This document shows, piece by piece, positions 3,745 to 23,108 of a DNA stretch of 45,444 bases. The stretch lies in sequence record SRR31156797_5597, one strand, 5' to 3'. The translations under genes were made by a program, and so were the position numbers. The first letter of the stretch is position 1. Each line of letters begins with the position of its first letter. The notes under the pieces are model-generated. The model saw nothing but the letters and a program-made list of their open reading frames with translations. It was not told where the DNA came from and searched no databases.

Positions 3745-3929
3745 AACCTTTGGGGTTAGGATGTATTATTTTTTCATCCCTAAAATGGGCGTCGGCCCCA
3801 TGATGTCTTGTGCTTTGGCGGGGCAACTTTTACTCGCAGTTATTGCCAGTCACTTTGGTTGGTTTGGTAAAAATCCTTGGAGTACTTGCTTTAATTGCAG
3901 GGGTTATACTTATTAATATTGAAAAATAA
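3745..3929 (+). pseudogene. DMT/YdcZ (DUF606)-like transporter C-terminal remnant
   Basis: Reads YYFFIPKMGVGPMMSCALAGQLLLAVIASHFGWFG, then after a frameshift/deletion VKILGVLALIAGVILINIEK*. The upstream part (to about 3590) is degraded, so the 5' boundary is approximate. Confidence 0.7.
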
Positions 3930-3942
3930 TTTGGGATACCAA

Positions 3943-4359
3943 ATGGAATTTAAAATAGTATATGATATCAGCCATATTGACTGGAAAGCTGTATCAGAAA
4001 CTTTACGATCAGCGGGAATGGCATACCAATCACCCGATAAGCACAAACGTGCTTTTGAGGCCAGTCATACAACTGTTTTCATATATTCGGATAACAAATT
4101 AATCGGTTTCGGTAGAGCTCTATCTGACGGTGAGTACCAAGCTGCCATTTATGATGTTGCGGTTTTGCCAACTGTACAGGGGAAGGGGGTTGGAAAGGTC
4201 ATAATGCAATCTATCTTAGATCAACTCCCAGACTGCAATATCATTCTTTATGCAACTCCAGGAATGGAAGGTTTTTATAGAAAACTTGGTTTTGGAGATA
4301 TGAAAACAGGAATGGCTGTATTCACAACTCCGCAAGCAATGGAAAAGTTCACCAAGTAG
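3943..4359 (+). CDS. GNAT family N-acetyltransferase
   Basis: LIGFGRALSDG..AAIYDVAVLP..QGKGVG acetyl-CoA motif and FYRKLGF. ATG 3943 preferred because the longer ORF overlaps the DMT remnant. Confidence 0.9.
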   Translation: MEFKIVYDISHIDWKAVSETLRSAGMAYQSPDKHKRAFEASHTTVFIYSDNKLIGFGRALSDGEYQAAIYDVAVLPTVQGKGVGKVIMQSILDQLPDCNIILYATPGMEGFYRKLGFGDMKTGMAVFTTPQAMEKFTK

Positions 4360-4946: not shown

Positions 4947-5605
4947 TTAATCTATCATCTCCGACTCGTAAAAGTGTACTTCGGAACCTGTTTTTCCACG
5001 GGCCACCTTTACCATAAATCGAGCAACTGACTCGGCTTGAACAGGTCTATATTTTTTAAGAGAACCCAGCAAGTACGGTTGCAGCAAGGGAGTTACCATT
5101 GCCCCTATTTTCTCTCCCAAGCGGAACTCTTCTCGTGGCCCCAAGAGCAGCGATGGCCTGATAATGTGTAAACGGGGATACCCCACACTTAGTACAGCCT
5201 CTTCCATTTCTCCTTTGACCCGGCTATAAAACACCTTCGATTCTTTATCGGCACCCATCGAGGATATTACCAAAAATTGTTCTGCGCCTTGTTTCCTCAT
5301 TAGCTCTGCTACAGTAACAACTAGAAAAAAATCTACTTTTTTGAAGGCTTCTTGAGATCCAGCTTTCTTAATCGTGGTCCCTAAACAGCAAAAAACATCA
5401 TCAGCCTTTATACCTGCTAGTTCGTGTTCAAGGTTGTCAAATTTTACTCTAACAATTTTGAGTTTAGGATGGATTGTTGCCAGGGGGGGGGGCTTACAAG
5501 AGCGATTACTTCTGCATAGCTTGGATCTTCGAGAAGTGCTTGCAGACAATATCCACCGATGAGCCCTGTTGCGCCAACGATGAGTGCTCTTCTTTTGGTA
5601 ATCAT
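4947..5605 (-). pseudogene. NAD(P)-binding epimerase/oxidoreductase (YraR/TIP30-like), frameshifted at a G10/C10 tract
   Basis: True N-terminus MITKRRALIVGATGLIGGYCL (Rossmann motif, ATG 5605, GGGGAG RBS) is in a different frame from DDVFCCLGTTIKKAGSQEAFKKVD...IIRPSLLLG. The shift lies in G10 at 5483-5492; 8 or 11 nt restores frame. Could be a sequencing error. Confidence 0.85.
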
Positions 5606-5702
5606 GGTTTGCTCCCCTCTAACCCTATAAATACTTAAATCAAAATATCATCCACTTTGAAAGCAACTACACCCTCGAAGGACGTTATAGACTGAGCATA
5701 TT

Positions 5703-6239
5703 TTACATGCGGATCACCTCATCGCTGCCCTCCATCAAGGCATCACTCAACTGTCTCTCCCGCTCAGTCAGAGCCGAGTCTGCAAACGTGTTCCCGTAGT
5801 AGGCGTTGATGACCCGGGTTGAACTTTTTGCCAAAGTCTCAAGAAACAGGGCCAAATTACCAGCCTGGAGGTAGAGGGTTGCGTCGTTAACAAACAAAAT
5901 GTCCCGCTTCTGTTTTGCAAACTCGGCAAACAGCTCCTCTATCTTCCGGGCGTTCTCTGTGGCCAACTCAAGAGTGTGGTCCGCATCACTGCCCATAAGA
6001 CGGGGAGCGATAATTTGCGTGGTAAGGTACAAAACATCTGTCCCCGGTGGAAGAGGCAGCTTACCTCCGATTCCACGAACCGGGTCTGGGGACAAATCCA
6101 GCACCGCAATCTGCTCGCCGTATCCGGCTTGTAAAAAAAACTCCAGAATCGTAGTGGTCCGGGTTGTTTTGCCGGAGTTGACATCTCCGGCAATCAGTGT
6201 CTGCCTATTAAGGAGATGTTTTATATCATATTCCTTCAT
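5703..6239 (-). CDS. Uncharacterised small P-loop NTPase
   Basis: Walker A LIAGDVNSGKTT and hydrophobic-Asp ILFVND. Start overlaps the upstream transporter stop (TAATG coupling). Confidence 0.8.
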   Translation of the reverse strand: MKEYDIKHLLNRQTLIAGDVNSGKTTRTTTILEFFLQAGYGEQIAVLDLSPDPVRGIGGKLPLPPGTDVLYLTTQIIAPRLMGSDADHTLELATENARKIEELFAEFAKQKRDILFVNDATLYLQAGNLALFLETLAKSSTRVINAYYGNTFADSALTERERQLSDALMEGSDEVIRM

Positions 6240-7501
6240 TACATGATTCCGAATTGAGTAAGGAGAAACCGTACAGCCAGAAAGGAGGTCACCAACAACG
6301 TGACGCCGCCCATAAAATTCAGCAAAGCCGAATTTCGCGTTTTACAGCCCGACCGGTTGAGCAGGTAGAGAATAATCGCGATCACAAGAGGAGTGCCTGT
6401 AAGGCCCAGAGCAAGCATCAACGGAAGAAGCAAGAAGAAGCTGCCTTTAACAAAGGGACCGAGCATACTCACCAGGCATCCGGCAAAAACAGCCACGGCA
6501 AAGCGTTTATCTTTAACATCCAGTGCCCATCCCATTTTATCCGAAATAAAATAAGCTCCGGCCATAAAGGTTGGTGAGAGGGTGGAGAGAGTGGCAGCCC
6601 AGAGGCCAATCATAAAAATCTTCATGGCGCTGTCCCCCAAAAGAGGTTTGAGGGCTAAAGCCGCGTCAGTTGCCCTTTTCACTTCAATCCCATTAGGGTG
6701 AAGGACGGCTGCCGCTACCAGAAAGATGGCTGCACTGTAGAGACCAAAGGCCAAACCCATGGAGGAGATGGTGTCGAATCTAGCCAATGGTAGATCCTTG
6801 GGTTTCCAACCCCTGGCATTGGTATTATAGGTATGCATCCCGATAATGGTAATATGAACAGCACCACCCATGATAGCCGCCATCATCAAGGCCGCATCGA
6901 TCCCGCCAGGAAGATTAGGGAGAATCCCTCCGAAAATACCAGAGACAGAAAGATCAGCCATGAATAGGGTACCCACAAAACAAGCCACAACAAAAATAAC
7001 CAGGACTTTACAGACCGTTTCAAATTTTCGGTACCCCTTGCGCACCAAAAAAAGAGTAATAACTATACCGTATACGACTCCCCAATAGGGGGTATCCAGG
7101 CCTGTGACCAATGAGGTTACTCCTGCAAGGGCGTTCATCAAGAACATCGCTGCAAGCCAGGTGGCCAAGAGAGCGTCAATGGTAAGAACCCATGCCCAGC
7201 GTTTGCCCAGGTGTTTTTCCGTTGCGGCGATTATGCCCATTCCTTCCATGATACCTACCCTGGCAGCCAAATACTGTGCTGTAGTGCCAAAGACAGCACT
7301 TAAGATAACAACCCACAGCATCTTGTAGCCGTATGTTGCTCCGGCAATGGCTACACTGGCCAAGGTTGCAGGCCCACAGGCAACGGCACTGATGATCCAC
7401 GCAGGACCCAGTTGACTGATATATTGACCGTATATTCTCATTCCAGAAACACCTCGTTCCCCATCTTGTGGGGAACCGGCAGTGGTTTCTTTGGTTTTCA
7501 T
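6239..7501 (-). CDS. NRAMP-superfamily (YcsG/MntH-like) transporter lacking the canonical metal-binding motif; candidate thiamine or precursor transporter
   Basis: Multi-TM protein with LGPAWIISAVACGPATL...GATYGYKMLWV...QYLAARVG pattern of NRAMP fold. AGGAG RBS before ATG 7501. Preceded by a TPP riboswitch. Confidence 0.85.
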   Translation of the reverse strand: MKTKETTAGSPQDGERGVSGMRIYGQYISQLGPAWIISAVACGPATLASVAIAGATYGYKMLWVVILSAVFGTTAQYLAARVGIMEGMGIIAATEKHLGKRWAWVLTIDALLATWLAAMFLMNALAGVTSLVTGLDTPYWGVVYGIVITLFLVRKGYRKFETVCKVLVIFVVACFVGTLFMADLSVSGIFGGILPNLPGGIDAALMMAAIMGGAVHITIIGMHTYNTNARGWKPKDLPLARFDTISSMGLAFGLYSAAIFLVAAAVLHPNGIEVKRATDAALALKPLLGDSAMKIFMIGLWAATLSTLSPTFMAGAYFISDKMGWALDVKDKRFAVAVFAGCLVSMLGPFVKGSFFLLLPLMLALGLTGTPLVIAIILYLLNRSGCKTRNSALLNFMGGVTLLVTSFLAVRFLLTQFGIM

Positions 7502-7608
7502 AAACAATCTCCTTTTTTACTGGCAGCAATTTTAAAGAAAGGGACTGTCGAGGTAGGCGGGAAGGCTTTGCAGGAGGCAGAAAAATTTTCCGGCTGGAAA
7601 AGCGATCT

Positions 7609-7693
7609 CCGAATTCCCTGCGACAGTATGAACTGTATCAGGTTCGATGAGTATAATCTCAGCCCTGCCTACATTGCAGAACACCCCAATCGG
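7609..7693 (-). ncRNA. TPP (thiamine pyrophosphate) riboswitch aptamer
   Basis: Minus strand reads CCGATT-GGGGTG-TTCTGC..GCAGGG-CTGAGA-TTATACTC-ATC-GAACCTGAT-ACAG-TTCATA-CTGT-CGCAGGGA-ATTCGG. It contains the THI-box hallmarks (GGGG, CTGAGA, GAACCTGAT, P5 stem, CGxAGGGA) and lies about 110 nt upstream of the transporter start. Confidence 0.93.
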
Positions 7694-7846
7694 AATGTGG
7701 AATTACTAATGAGTTATGAAAAAAAAAGCAATTTATTTTGTAAATTCAAGGTAACGAAACAATATCTGAGGTGCAAGATTTCTCCTTACAGGACCAGATT
7801 TTTTTCAGCCTGCGTACTACCTCTCAAGATAAAAGCGTAATCGTGA

Positions 7847-8251
7847 CTAGGATTTACAGTCACAATTGAAACGTGCGACAATATACTTTTCTATACGAGG
7901 CTGGATAGTTTTCAGTAAATAATCACTTTCCAAATAGGGACAGGGTTTATCATACGGAAATTCCCGACACTGCCTTGGCCGGGCGGTGTGAATCATACAA
8001 CGGGCTCGCATCTTATTGTTACTGAGAAAAATACAGGAACCGTCTTCCCTTACCTTAAAGGTGTTTCTGCCTTCCAGATAACGCTGCCTGACCACCCCAT
8101 CTGCGACGTTAAAATGGCGTGCAATCCGGTTGATGTCATCTCCATCCAGATAGAGCGTTGCCCCTTCTAACCGGTAGCAGCAGTAGCCTGGGCAATAATT
8201 ACAGTACGTTTTGTTCGCGGCAAGACAATAGATTTCTGGTGTTTTTTCCAT
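7847..8251 (-). CDS. YkgJ family cysteine-cluster (CxxCxxxCC) protein
   Basis: CNYCPGYCC...SCIFL...CMIHTARPRQCREFP. Start placed at MEKTPEIYC. Confidence 0.88.
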   Translation of the reverse strand: MEKTPEIYCLAANKTYCNYCPGYCCYRLEGATLYLDGDDINRIARHFNVADGVVRQRYLEGRNTFKVREDGSCIFLSNNKMRARCMIHTARPRQCREFPYDKPCPYLESDYLLKTIQPRIEKYIVARFNCDCKS

Positions 8252-8546
8252 GGACAGGCCCAGGCAGAGGTGATAACGCAGAAAGCCTAGGCGTTGATAT
8301 TTCCAGGCAGATATACCTGTGATACATACTTCTGAACCTGTTAAGCCACAAGGTATTTCACATCCGAGTGCCATATCAACGCTGTTCTGACGTATCTGGC
8401 TTGTCCTTTTTCAAACCAAGAGCCAAAAAATCTAGCGCAACAAGTCGATATACCATTGTTGATGCAACACTAGTCATTTCACTTCTAATAGTCTTGCCCG
8501 CTCTGTTCTCCACCAAAAGAGCGCCTGATGAAATAGTGAGAAAGGG

Positions 8547-8839: not shown

Positions 8840-9244
8840 ATGAGTCAATGGTTAATTTTTCTTGCAATCATCCCCCTGTCCAGCTTGCACCTAACAAAGC
8901 ACTTCCAGCTCAAACACAGGTGGTTGATTAATGGTATCGCTTTTGGGCTGGTGGCAGCTCCGGTAAGTCTCGGATTATTACAGATGACTTATATACCGGT
9001 CATCGGCAAATTACTGGGCCTGATAGGGCTTGTTGCCAATCTGACGCACGGATCAGTAGGCTTTTTTTGCCTCCTGGGCAGTGGCGTGCTTGAATTGAAT
9101 TCTGTTATCACCGCTCCTCAGTTAGTTATGATAAATATGGTAAACGCAATTTTGTTTGCCCACTGTTATGGATTGATCGGCTACGCTATTGATAAAAAGA
9201 TGGCAGCAGAAGCAGGTACAGACGGCCACATGATGCCTGTGTAA
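8840..9244 (+). CDS. Hypothetical membrane protein (about 4 TM)
   Basis: 134-aa hydrophobic ORF from ATG 8840 with GGAG RBS, followed by a terminator. Confidence 0.75.
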   Translation: MSQWLIFLAIIPLSSLHLTKHFQLKHRWLINGIAFGLVAAPVSLGLLQMTYIPVIGKLLGLIGLVANLTHGSVGFFCLLGSGVLELNSVITAPQLVMINMVNAILFAHCYGLIGYAIDKKMAAEAGTDGHMMPV

Positions 9245-9277
9245 CAATGATATAATATTCTTCCTCATTCTCTCCTC

Positions 9278-10436: not shown

Positions 10437-11558
10437 ATGAAAAAAATGACCCGCTGTATGTTGCACTTGGGATGTTCCCTTATGCTTGTATCCTGGCTTC
10501 ACCCTACCCCCCTCAGGGCGACTGAAAATGCAGAATGTTTTGAGTGTCATTCCGATGAGACCCTTACCAAGGAAAGTACAGACAACATCCTGCAGACTGA
10601 AATGACAGAATCCATGTATGTGGACGAAGAAGAGTTTGAACATTCTATCCATAATATAAACGGCATAACCTGTGTTGATTGTCACACTGGCATTGAAGAA
10701 CTCAACTGGGATGAGGAGGTTCCTCATAAAGCGGATTTAGATCCTGTGTTATGTGCCGAGTGTCACGAAGAGTCTGGAGCAGAGTTTCAAAACAGTGTGC
10801 ATATGAAAATCCGAAAAAAAGGTGTGACAATGCAATGTTACGCCTGCCATGACTATCATTATGTCAAACCAATGGAAGGGATTCAGGTCGCCGAAAGGAC
10901 AAACAGTAACTGTTTAAAATGCCATAATCCCAATCTTTCACACGACTGGTTACCAGCAGGTGATTCGCACTTTGCGTTTGTGGAATGTGTTGTCTGTCAT
11001 GCTCCTGAAGTGCCGAAATACATTAACCTCCGCTTTTATGATCTTGTTACCGATAAATTTTATGACGGTGATCAACTCTTGGATATCCTTGGCCTTACCA
11101 GGGAAAATTTCATGGATACCATCGACAAAAACAGCAACAAAATTATTGATAGCGATGAGCTTGACGACCTGGTTTTTATGCTCAAGCAGAACAATATTCA
11201 CACCCTTATGCGTGCAGAACTTGTTGCCGACATAAACCCAATAGCCCACCAGATAAACAGAAATGCGGCACAAAAGGACTGCGAAAAATGTCACTCAGGC
11301 GACTCTCCTTACTTCAACGAAGTATCCATGCTCCTGACACATAATGACGGTACAGTAGAAAGGTATACAATTGATCGTTCGGTGCTTGAAAGCTACCATG
11401 TAAGCCATTTCTACCTTCTTGGCGGCACCAAAATAAAGATGCTGGACAAAATAGGCATTCTTATTCTTAGTGGCGGTATCCTTGGTGCATTTGGTCATTT
11501 CTGCGGAAGAATTTTGACAGTCAGGCTCCGCAGAAGACGCAAAGAGCCACAACATTAA
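10437..11558 (+). CDS. cbcA: Membrane-anchored heptaheme cytochrome c, CbcA-like
   Basis: Signal peptide; seven CxxCH (CFECH, CVDCH, CAECH, CYACH, CLKCH, CVVCH, CEKCH); EF-hand-like loop DKNSNKIIDSDE; C-terminal TM helix with His; adjacent to a cytochrome b. Confidence 0.85.
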   Translation: MKKMTRCMLHLGCSLMLVSWLHPTPLRATENAECFECHSDETLTKESTDNILQTEMTESMYVDEEEFEHSIHNINGITCVDCHTGIEELNWDEEVPHKADLDPVLCAECHEESGAEFQNSVHMKIRKKGVTMQCYACHDYHYVKPMEGIQVAERTNSNCLKCHNPNLSHDWLPAGDSHFAFVECVVCHAPEVPKYINLRFYDLVTDKFYDGDQLLDILGLTRENFMDTIDKNSNKIIDSDELDDLVFMLKQNNIHTLMRAELVADINPIAHQINRNAAQKDCEKCHSGDSPYFNEVSMLLTHNDGTVERYTIDRSVLESYHVSHFYLLGGTKIKMLDKIGILILSGGILGAFGHFCGRILTVRLRRRRKEPQH

Positions 11559-23030: not shown

Positions 23031-23108
23031 TGGGGTGAGCGATGGGACTTGAACCCACGACCTCCGAGGTCACAACCCGGTGCTACCACCAGCTGAGCTA
23101 CGCTCACC
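23031..23108 (-). tRNA. tRNA-His (GTG)
   Basis: G-1 GTGAGCG...CGCTCAC C CCA; anticodon arm CCGGG-TT GTG AC-CTCGG; GTTCAAGTC T-loop; encoded CCA. Confidence 0.96.

Follow-up and report, generated by a model that had tools for sequence, protein, structure and literature searches.

What does a thiamine pyrophosphate (TPP) riboswitch control when the gene behind it belongs to a family of metal transporters? The question is raised by sequence record SRR31156797_5597 (45,444 nucleotides in all, referred to here as the window), the minus strand of which carries a TPP aptamer in the 5' leader of P0001, a gene for a 420-residue protein related to the Nramp/MntH transporters. A sequence-only reading of the window had suggested that such a gene would be annotated as a Mn2+ transporter but probably imports thiamine, hydroxymethylpyrimidine (HMP) or thiazole. 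The comparative evidence presented below supports this suggestion, and we estimate the probability that the transporter is a TPP-repressed importer of thiamine or of a thiamine moiety at about 0.75. Among the possible cargoes, the thiazole half of the vitamin (hydroxyethylthiazole, HET, or its carboxylated form) would be favoured, at somewhat less than even odds. The analysis goes beyond the earlier proposal in three respects, namely, a P-loop NTPase partner encoded by the second gene of the operon (P0002; 6239-5703, minus strand), which had been missed, a deep and recurrent link to the riboswitch, and a gene content of the host genomes that points to thiazole. The functional assignments are made throughout from genomic evidence alone.

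A TPP riboswitch and its leader

The full RF00059 (TPP) covariance model (positions 1-105) matches the minus strand at 7597-7698 with 65.7 bits, against a gathering score of 54.3 bits and with an E-value of 8e-11 for the whole window on both strands. The sequence-only reading had placed an aptamer at 7609-7693 (-) and had named an RF00059 scan as its check; the aptamer that it recognized is the core of the match, which exceeds the gathering score. The aptamer aligns with 15 aptamers that precede homologous genes at 81% mean column identity. It is located in the 5' leader, on the same strand as P0001, and is followed by a candidate expression platform. The distance to the gene, previously given as about 110 nt, holds when counted from the aptamer end assumed at the time, whereas from the end of the RF00059 match to the ATG at 7501 it is 95 nt. 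In the order of transcription, the unit comprises the riboswitch, the transporter gene and the P-loop gene, and the features recognized within and around it are as follows:

7867-7839 (-), terminator-like hairpin after the upstream gene; pattern match only
7798-7827 (-), promoter-like site TTGAGA-18-AAAAAT from a consensus scan, 9 of 12 positions; weak pattern match only
7597-7698 (-), TPP riboswitch aptamer, RF00059; Rfam covariance-model match
7502-7596 (-), expression platform, a conserved leader with a helix sequestering the Shine-Dalgarno sequence; consensus fold of 11 Desulfobulbales leaders
6239-7501 (-), P0001, Nramp-related transporter gene, 420 residues, with the non-canonical site C42/A45/M120/H216; open reading frame and Pfam PF01566
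5703-6239 (-), P0002, P-loop NTPase gene, 178 residues; open reading frame, Walker motifs and the RecA-like fold of an AlphaFold2 (AF2) model
5669-5685 (-), terminator-like hairpin after the P-loop gene, a 7-pair stem followed by a T-rich tail; pattern match only

The promoter-like site (7827-7798) is thus placed between the aptamer and the terminator-like hairpin of the upstream gene. P0001 and P0002 are translationally coupled, the start codon of the latter overlapping the stop codon of the former (TAATG).

A GGAG at 7512-7509 stands 7 nt ahead of the ATG at 7501. The proposal that the pyrimidine-rich TCCCTTTCTTT (7544-7534) could sequester the ribosome-binding site agrees with the minimum-free-energy fold of the window leader, in which it pairs with the AAAAAGGAG region (z -1.8 relative to shuffled sequences). 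The same stretch is paired in the consensus fold of the 11 Desulfobulbales leaders, which are conserved at 79% mean column identity; in the resulting helix, ACAGTCCC (7548-7541) pairs with GGAGATTGT (7512-7504). Across the alignment, the helix joins ACAGTC-CC to GG-AGATTGT, that is, to the Shine-Dalgarno sequence plus the spacer before the ATG (columns 165-173 with 210-218), and at columns 165:218 and 167:216 pairing is kept via a change on both sides, each in one of the 11 leaders. This leader structure fits translational repression by TPP, and the switch would presumably operate by TPP binding choosing between alternative folds.

Taken together, the region from 7827 to 5669 (-) would constitute a TPP-repressed operon of two genes, belonging to a member of the Desulfobulbales. 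When TPP is plentiful, the aptamer at 7698-7597 would bind it and the leader would keep the ribosome-binding site paired, switching translation off, and when TPP is scarce the site would open and both gene products would be made. The first product would be a LeuT-fold carrier of the Nramp kind that has lost the Asp/Asn/Met metal site along with the glutamate of transmembrane segment (TM) 3 and that imports an organic compound of the thiamine pathway instead of a metal. The P-loop protein would most likely spend ATP on the imported compound, trapping it metabolically as a stand-in for the thiazole kinase ThiM.

An Nramp-related transporter with a replaced metal site

The open reading frame of P0001 extends from 7501 to 6239 (-) and encodes 420 residues from the ATG. 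The earlier description of the product as NRAMP-like is borne out by a match to the Pfam Nramp family (PF01566; E 5.8e-78, residues 48-384), which was the only family recovered in a Pfam scan at E <= 0.1; no ThiT, PnuC/T, CytX/NCS1 or ThiW profile was matched. The protein scores below the NCBIfam cut-offs (MntH, 107.2 versus 430 bits; 72 versus 272.5; Nramp_1, 47.4 versus 50). As foreseen in the sequence-only reading, every named homologue is annotated as a Mn2+ or divalent-metal transporter; the homologues at E <= 1e-10 number 359.

The canonical MntH/Nramp transporters, represented by Deinococcus MntH (DraNramp, 8e6h), belong to the same Pfam family, and the 11-TM LeuT-type architecture is expected for P0001 as well, but the two differ at the substrate site. 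In a phmmer alignment of P0001 to 8e6h (residues 16-383, E 6e-25), D56, N59, M230 and E134 correspond to C42, A45, H216 and M120, respectively, and neither the DPGN of TM1 nor the MPH of TM6 nor the TM3 glutamate of canonical Nramps is present at the aligned positions. The CGPAT and AVHI motifs highlighted earlier are found where expected, as ACGPAT in TM1 and GGAVHIT in TM6, replacing MDPGNF and ATVMPH of the Deinococcus protein. The assertion that P0001 lacks the metal-binding site accordingly needs rewording: the canonical ligands are gone, but the site has been replaced by Cys, Ala, Met and His, not emptied. In a 2026 preprint, E134 is assigned a role in the proton pathway of DraNramp (PMC12873925).

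The replacement motifs are common to the close homologues: 136 positions do not vary across 37 of these sequences, A41-C42-G43-P44-A45-T46 and G212-G213-A214-V215-H216 among them. In addition, His216, Thr46, Glu161, Lys165, Tyr225, Trp232, Asp243 and Asp321 are invariant in 39 sequences. Full-length relatives reach down to 40% identity in a library clustered at 50% identity. Four of seven such relatives have Ala in place of Cys42; this substitution, seen at 40-46% identity, argues against a Cys/His metal site. GGAVHIT is kept in these relatives, with conservative changes in two of them (GGSIHVT and GGAIHIA). A site with no acidic ligand and with a dispensable Cys would be unlike a divalent-metal site.

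One of the relatives, at 42% identity and with 510 residues, represents a 90%-identity cluster (P0129) found in transcriptomes of two unrelated algae, Diacronema lutheri and Picocystis salinarum; bacterial contamination common to both could account for it, or the copy may be genuinely eukaryotic.

Recurrence of the riboswitch

A scan of one genome per species yielded 37 close loci (60-94% identity), all of them in Desulfobulbales, Desulfobacterales-type and Desulfarculales-type genomes, along with 5 distant Bacillota loci. When the same phylum was sampled evenly, at 401 genomes, a homologue was found in 19, 13 of which were new (50-63% identity). With the window included, the bacterial total is 51 loci (37 + 13 + 1), 49 of which are assessable, L015 and L153 being without enough upstream DNA. 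RF00059 is found upstream, on the same strand, at 15 of the 37 close loci and at 11 of the 13 new ones; of the two remaining new loci, L153 has only 183 nt of upstream DNA and L146 gave no match. Overall, the riboswitch is present at 27 of the 51 bacterial loci, the window included, or 27 of the 49 assessable. In a quick maximum-likelihood tree, the riboswitch-bearing loci fall into several clades, including three deep bacterial ones, and the presence of the riboswitch can be explained with as few as 5 changes of state (4 without the archaeal rows and the outgroup). Such a small number of changes across several clades indicates that riboswitch and gene were joined long ago and not by chance; the link looks ancestral in the bacterial branch, with a few losses. 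The bacterial loci of the transporter family yielded no riboswitch of another class, and in particular there was no match to the M-box (RF00380) at the 51 loci.

Genome-wide RF00059 scans of 15 related genomes, in each of which 150 of 154-466 first-look candidates were scored, add to this picture. In eight of these genomes (G018, G021, G022, G023, G104, G065, G225 and G312), the only TPP riboswitch found is the one before the transporter gene or its operon. Two TPP riboswitches were found in each of G001 and G002, one belonging to the transporter and the other preceding a thiG-containing operon that runs on to thiC, and four in G003, before thiC, thiM-thiE, a gene for an ABC binding protein and the transporter gene. 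G004 has a single one, at thiG, with none at the transporter gene, and G020 has a single one before a thiC fragment. In the latter case (L055; G020:C11:152003-152419), the short ThiC fragments behind the riboswitch (36 and 22 bits, one with an internal TAA) look like a decayed thiC left behind its riboswitch.

Genes of thiamine metabolism occur within the riboswitch-led unit itself at four loci. In L022, the riboswitch is followed by thiD (PF08543, E 9e-98), the only strong ThiD match in that genome, and then by the transporter gene. L158 and L159 share the order riboswitch, thiamine pyrophosphokinase (TPK; PF04263 and PF04265), transporter, DUF2284 and P-loop gene, with no other TPK match in either genome. 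L020 retains a 61-residue thiM remnant between the riboswitch and the transporter gene. In addition, thiE ends ~180 nt before the riboswitch in L017. The linkage of homologues to TPP riboswitches or thi genes, by which the sequence-only reading proposed to be judged, thus holds for 27 of the 51 bacterial loci and for units with thiD, TPK, a thiM remnant or a neighbouring thiE, but not for 22 of the 49 assessable bacterial loci or for any of 80 archaeal-type loci, to which we return below.

DUF2284, for which Pfam predicts metal binding, is encoded between the transporter and P-loop genes in four riboswitch-led operons (L158:2774-3379, L159:3140-3748, L149:2631-3314 and L150:896-1480), with E-values of 1e-33 to 3e-34 in L158 and L159; the literature found mentions its name only in passing. 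In L009, ~3.2 kb beyond the P-loop gene that follows the transporter, RF02005 (a group II intron domain) is matched with 71 bits at 9009-9260, the match being truncated where the locus ends.

A P-loop partner

A homologue of P0002 is located directly downstream of the transporter gene at 31 of the 37 close loci and at 12 of the 13 new ones, the 13th being cut by the contig end; with the window, the pair is found at 44 of 51 bacterial loci. Whole-genome profile searches showed the P-loop gene to be single-copy and adjacent to the transporter in G001, G004, G005 and G104 and to be absent from six genomes the locus of which lacks it (G007, G017 and G020-G023). In the genomes checked, it is encoded only beside this transporter. 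The P-loop gene of L033 is cut by a contig end, and that of L006 (5263-5694; Desulfogranum mediterraneum), with an in-frame stop near the start and a shortened alignment, is likely a pseudogene, the riboswitch and transporter being intact.

The pair extends to archaea. A metagenome scan with an alignment of distant members yielded only an archaeal type of 453 residues, with archaeal neighbours (fibrillarin and Nop5), at 80 loci from samples that, judging by the contig names, are hypersaline; the P-loop gene lies downstream in 20 of the 80 at E <= 1e-17.

P0002 matches no Pfam or NCBIfam family, and the best hit in a profile search of PDB sequences with the P-loop family had an E-value of 0.24. 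Similar entries in the ESM Atlas fall into unnamed clusters of thermodesulfobacterial (Thermodesulfobacteriota) and archaeal origin. The Walker A (GDVNSGKT) and Walker B (FVND) motifs are invariant across 30 sequences as GxVNxGKT and ND, and the invariant residues include G18, G23 and K24 of Walker A, D48, a G56-x-G58-G59-K60 loop, P79-R80 and N96 as well as N118-D119 of Walker B, N145, Y147, G149 and E161.

The AF2 model (mean pLDDT 91.3) most closely resembles CobA (1g5r; Z 13.2 over 144 residues, root-mean-square deviation 3.2), followed by FlaH (12.5 and 12.3), CobU (9vio; 11.9) and TK1 (2orv; 11.4), with Rho and RecA-type ATPases near behind (FlaH, Rho and RecA-type together span Z 10.9-12.5), and Foldseek returned generic RecA/Rho/F1 matches with a TM-score of about 0.5. 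CobA, CobU and TK1 are comparable to P0002 in size and use ATP or GTP in reactions on small molecules, but are only 9-16% identical to it. The RecA fold of the model allows a small-molecule kinase or transferase and does not decide between such an enzyme and a motor or regulatory ATPase; a role of P0002 as a regulatory ATPase is therefore compatible with the model.

Thiamine gene content of the host genomes

Which part of the vitamin would be imported? Thiamine gene content was tabulated for 50 host genomes, most of which are metagenome-assembled genomes (MAGs), in which absences are weak evidence; for Thi4, 44 of up to 104 first-look candidates were scored. The most informative group is a Desulfobacterales-type clade of five genomes (G018 and G020-G023) without ThiC, ThiG, Thi4 or TPK, except for a ThiC fragment in G020 and a lower-scoring ThiC paralogue type in G021. 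These genomes keep ThiE (5/5), ThiD (4/5), ThiM (4/5) and, above its cut-off, ThiL (4/5). Lacking the synthases but retaining ThiE, ThiD and ThiM, they must import pyrimidine and thiazole precursors. Neither the ThiT nor the PnuC/T family was found in them; CytX is present above the NCBIfam cut-off (thia_cytX) in G018, G021 and G023 and as a split copy in G022, in no case with a riboswitch. The ThiW search was uninformative, the control genomes giving no match either.

Across the set, no ThiG or Thi4 match was found in 18 of 26 genomes with a riboswitch-bearing locus compared to 2 of 22 riboswitch-less ones (Fisher p 2.7e-5, uncorrected for phylogeny). Thi4 is present in every one of the 16 genomes of the Desulfarculales-type clade, which is without the riboswitch, whereas G104, G065 and G225 keep ThiC but gave no ThiG, Thi4 or ThiM match. 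The complementary pattern concerns the kinase: in 21 genomes no thiazole synthase was found, and of these 12 carry the P-loop gene without ThiM, 4 carry ThiM without the P-loop gene, 4 carry both and none lacks both, the last being cut by a contig end. This is the gene-content pattern expected if the carrier imports thiazole and the P-loop protein phosphorylates it in place of ThiM.

On these grounds, we tentatively suggest that the carrier and its dedicated RecA-fold partner form an undescribed two-part system that imports and traps the thiazole moiety of vitamin B1. If so, the carrier would be the first member of SLC11/Nramp with an organic substrate and the P-loop protein a new, non-homologous hydroxyethylthiazole kinase replacing ThiM in many anaerobes without thiazole synthase, and the pair would be old and common to Thermodesulfobacteriota and haloarchaea. 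This composite proposal is a good deal less probable than the import of some thiamine compound as such.

Two further assignments were tried and abandoned. A role of the P-loop protein as a replacement for ThiL finds no pattern in the data, the 11 genomes without ThiL including some with and some without the P-loop gene; and loss of thiC, that is, HMP auxotrophy, as the general driver is rejected because ThiC is present in 33 of 37 genomes.

The survey also yielded observations on the pathway itself. In four Desulfopila/Desulforhopalus-type genomes (G003, G007, G009 and G016, the hosts of L007, L003, L005 and L015), the best ThiL scores are 81-91 bits against a cut-off of 184, and G003 has thiC and thiM-thiE riboswitch operons despite having no ThiL above the cut-off; the thiamine monophosphate kinase step may be filled by something else in these organisms. 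Furthermore, 22 of 37 genomes have two ThiC-family matches, one at ~620-660 bits and the other at ~565-583 bits, G021 having the second class only; we take the latter to be possibly the benzimidazole-synthesis paralogue known from anaerobes.

Points weighing against thiamine-precursor import

Several observations run counter to the proposal of a TPP-repressed importer of thiazole or another thiamine compound. At 22 of the 49 assessable bacterial loci, no TPP riboswitch was detected either at the Rfam gathering score or with a covariance model of our own, built from aptamers of this clade's loci and searched at E <= 10, which found nothing further in the 22 riboswitch-less loci among the 37 close ones. 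The riboswitch-less loci include relatives at ~80% identity with long upstream regions (L004, L010, L012, L013 and L014), and an alignment of the upstream regions of five riboswitch-less close loci, together with 40 nt of L015, revealed no common element (38% mean column identity). The entire Desulfarculales-type clade is without the riboswitch. The same model, derived from bacterial aptamers, detected none at the 80 archaeal-type loci, where the neighbours are genes for fibrillarin, Nop5 and a GCS2 ligase, with no thi genes. Members without the riboswitch may be regulated otherwise, be expressed constitutively or do something else.

The evidence on the substrate likewise conflicts, with thiD suggesting HMP, TPK suggesting thiamine, and both the thiM remnant and the gene content suggesting thiazole. 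A phylogenetic test of the thiazole correlation provides only 3-4 independent contrasts, which leaves a sign test without power, the traits being clade-bound, and the frailty of absences in MAGs applies here too. As a strict replacement for ThiM, the P-loop protein has to be rejected, given that 17 genomes carry its gene alongside ThiM.

Alternative explanations

Import of intact thiamine, a cation like the ancestral substrates of the family, is the strongest competitor, although we consider it improbable, at about half the weight of the thiazole proposal; the vitamin would then be a substrate of TPK, or else of the P-loop protein in the role of a thiamine kinase, with ThiL acting next. It would account for TPK being the first gene of the riboswitch operon in L158 and L159, for the retention of the gene under riboswitch control in full prototrophs such as G001 and G002, as is usual for thiamine transporters, and for the presence of ThiL above the cut-off in 39 of 50 genomes. 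However, G020-G023 have the transporter with neither TPK nor the P-loop gene while keeping ThiD, ThiM and ThiE, to which salvage of a precursor is better suited. The ThiC retained in G104, G065 and G225 would be superfluous with an importer of intact thiamine; and because no ThiL scores above the cut-off in G104 and G065, their TPK may serve synthesis and not salvage.

Less probable again is import of the pyrimidine moiety, HMP or a related aminopyrimidine, to be phosphorylated by ThiD. The thiD gene between riboswitch and transporter in L022 agrees with this idea, but is a linkage at a single locus. No ThiC match was found in G018, G022, G023 and G030, with only the fragment in G020, and the only TPP riboswitch found in G018, G021, G022 and G023 is located at the transporter gene; yet G018, G021 and G023 already have CytX above the cut-off and G022 has the split copy. 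The presence of ThiC in 33 of the 37 host genomes also speaks against this option, and the riboswitch tracks the absence of thiazole synthases, not that of ThiC.

Still further down, the pair might handle some other small cationic or heterocyclic cofactor compound (e.g., one resembling nicotinamide riboside, or a damaged cofactor), or act in export, TPP control having been recruited in some lineages for a side activity. We regard this as quite unlikely. The loci without TPP control, bacterial and archaeal-type alike, and the conservation of the pair in archaea beside genes unrelated to thiamine are compatible with it, as is a nudC-like gene for an NADH pyrophosphatase (NUDIX plus zinc ribbon; e.g., L023:3024-3959, minus strand) that divergently adjoins the pair in nine Desulfarculales-type loci. 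By contrast, the invariance of 136 positions, the binding-site region included, in 37 sequences with and without the riboswitch speaks for a single substrate, TPP control is placed on deep branches of the tree, and no other riboswitch class was found with the family in bacteria. A gene of the major facilitator superfamily follows the pair in five to six of the Desulfarculales-type loci (e.g., L023:5752-7074, plus strand).

Finally, a divalent-metal importer, perhaps of altered specificity (Zn, Co or Ni via Cys42 and His216), with an incidental riboswitch and the P-loop protein as a metallochaperone-like NTPase, is very improbable: it has in its favour the clear Nramp membership and the uniform annotation of homologues, the ability of Cys and His to bind soft metals, DUF2284 in four of the operons and the precedent of Nramp-related proteins that carry metals (NrmT Mg2+, and a relative from A. 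capsulatum probably Mn2+; PMC4072509), but is opposed by the TPP riboswitch at 27 loci, the only one found in 8 genomes, by the lack of a metal-sensing riboswitch at these loci as opposed to the M-box at 3 of 5 distant Bacillota relatives, by the replacement of D56, N59, E134 and M230 that leaves no acidic ligand, by Ala at position 42 in relatives at 40-46% identity, by a P-loop protein devoid of any Cys and of a G3E-type motif, and by thiD or TPK in the same operon.

Comparison with known systems

Riboswitch-controlled transporters of the thiamine pathway belong to the ThiT, PnuT, ThiBPQ, CytX, ThiV, ThiW and ThiXYZ/YkoEDC families, and such vitamin B1 transporters often are co-transcribed with a salvage kinase, as in the pairing of PnuT with TPK. 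P0001 resembles them in carrying a TPP riboswitch in its leader, and the gene for one of them, CytX, occurs in some of the same genomes, but they bear no sequence relation to it, and its partner is an undescribed P-loop protein instead of ThiD, ThiM or TPK. Importers of vitamin precursors under riboswitch control are known as such; the one proposed here would belong to a protein family not expected in this role and would have a new partner.

The closest precedent within the Nramp/SLC11 superfamily is NrmT/EleNRMT, likewise a non-canonical branch, the function of which was first deduced from the riboswitch preceding the gene (PMC4072509). The two systems differ in sequence (P0001 is 23-26% identical to the distant Bacillota relatives), in the riboswitch (TPP here versus the Mg2+-sensing M-box), in TM1 (AVACGPAT here versus NAGNDAGG) and in the partner, which according to the same paper is an MgtE-like fragment as opposed to the P-loop NTPase. 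The M-box is indeed found at three Clostridium loci among the 5 distant Bacillota ones (L038, L039 and L041; RF00380, 140-142 bits, at about 1950-2320), ~1.9 kb upstream of the Nramp-related gene, from which it is separated by a gene of ~421 residues, the known NrmT-type arrangement.

The same source portrays the Nramp 'outgroup' as a possible link between LeuT-fold carriers of non-metal, organic substrates and metal carriers (PMC4072509). Full-text literature searches, judged by titles and abstracts, turned up no report that connects a protein of the Nramp type with TPP riboswitches or with the transport of thiamine; they did not extend to subscription journals, supplements or curated regulon databases, where an earlier prediction may exist.

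Other features of the window

Besides RF00059, the only Rfam match across the 45 kb is a single tRNA at 23034-23107 (-), with 57.6 bits. Directly upstream of the riboswitch lies a gene with a CxxCxxCC domain at 7847-8374 (-). Elsewhere, the window encodes a GNAT acetyltransferase (3895-4359, plus strand), a protein matching just the C-terminal two-thirds of NAD(P)-binding/epimerase profiles (4947-5549, minus strand), and a product rich in CxxCH motifs, judged by eye to be a multihaem cytochrome (10437-11558, plus strand).

Implications

According to the 2026 preprint, the Nramp-related groups other than the NRMT-like and G-motif 3 ones are entirely uncharacterized (PMC12873925). If the proposed role is correct, one of them would gain its first function, and a non-metal one. 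The P-loop partner, an unannotated family present in bacteria and archaea, now has a proposed function that can be tested. With all named homologues annotated as metal transporters, metabolic models built for sulfate reducers or for sediment MAGs would get metal as well as vitamin B1 traits wrong. In many host genomes no known thiazole synthase was found, and in many no ThiM either; the transporter and P-loop protein are candidates for the missing steps. The system would thereby bear on who depends on whom for vitamin B1 precursors in anoxic sediments.

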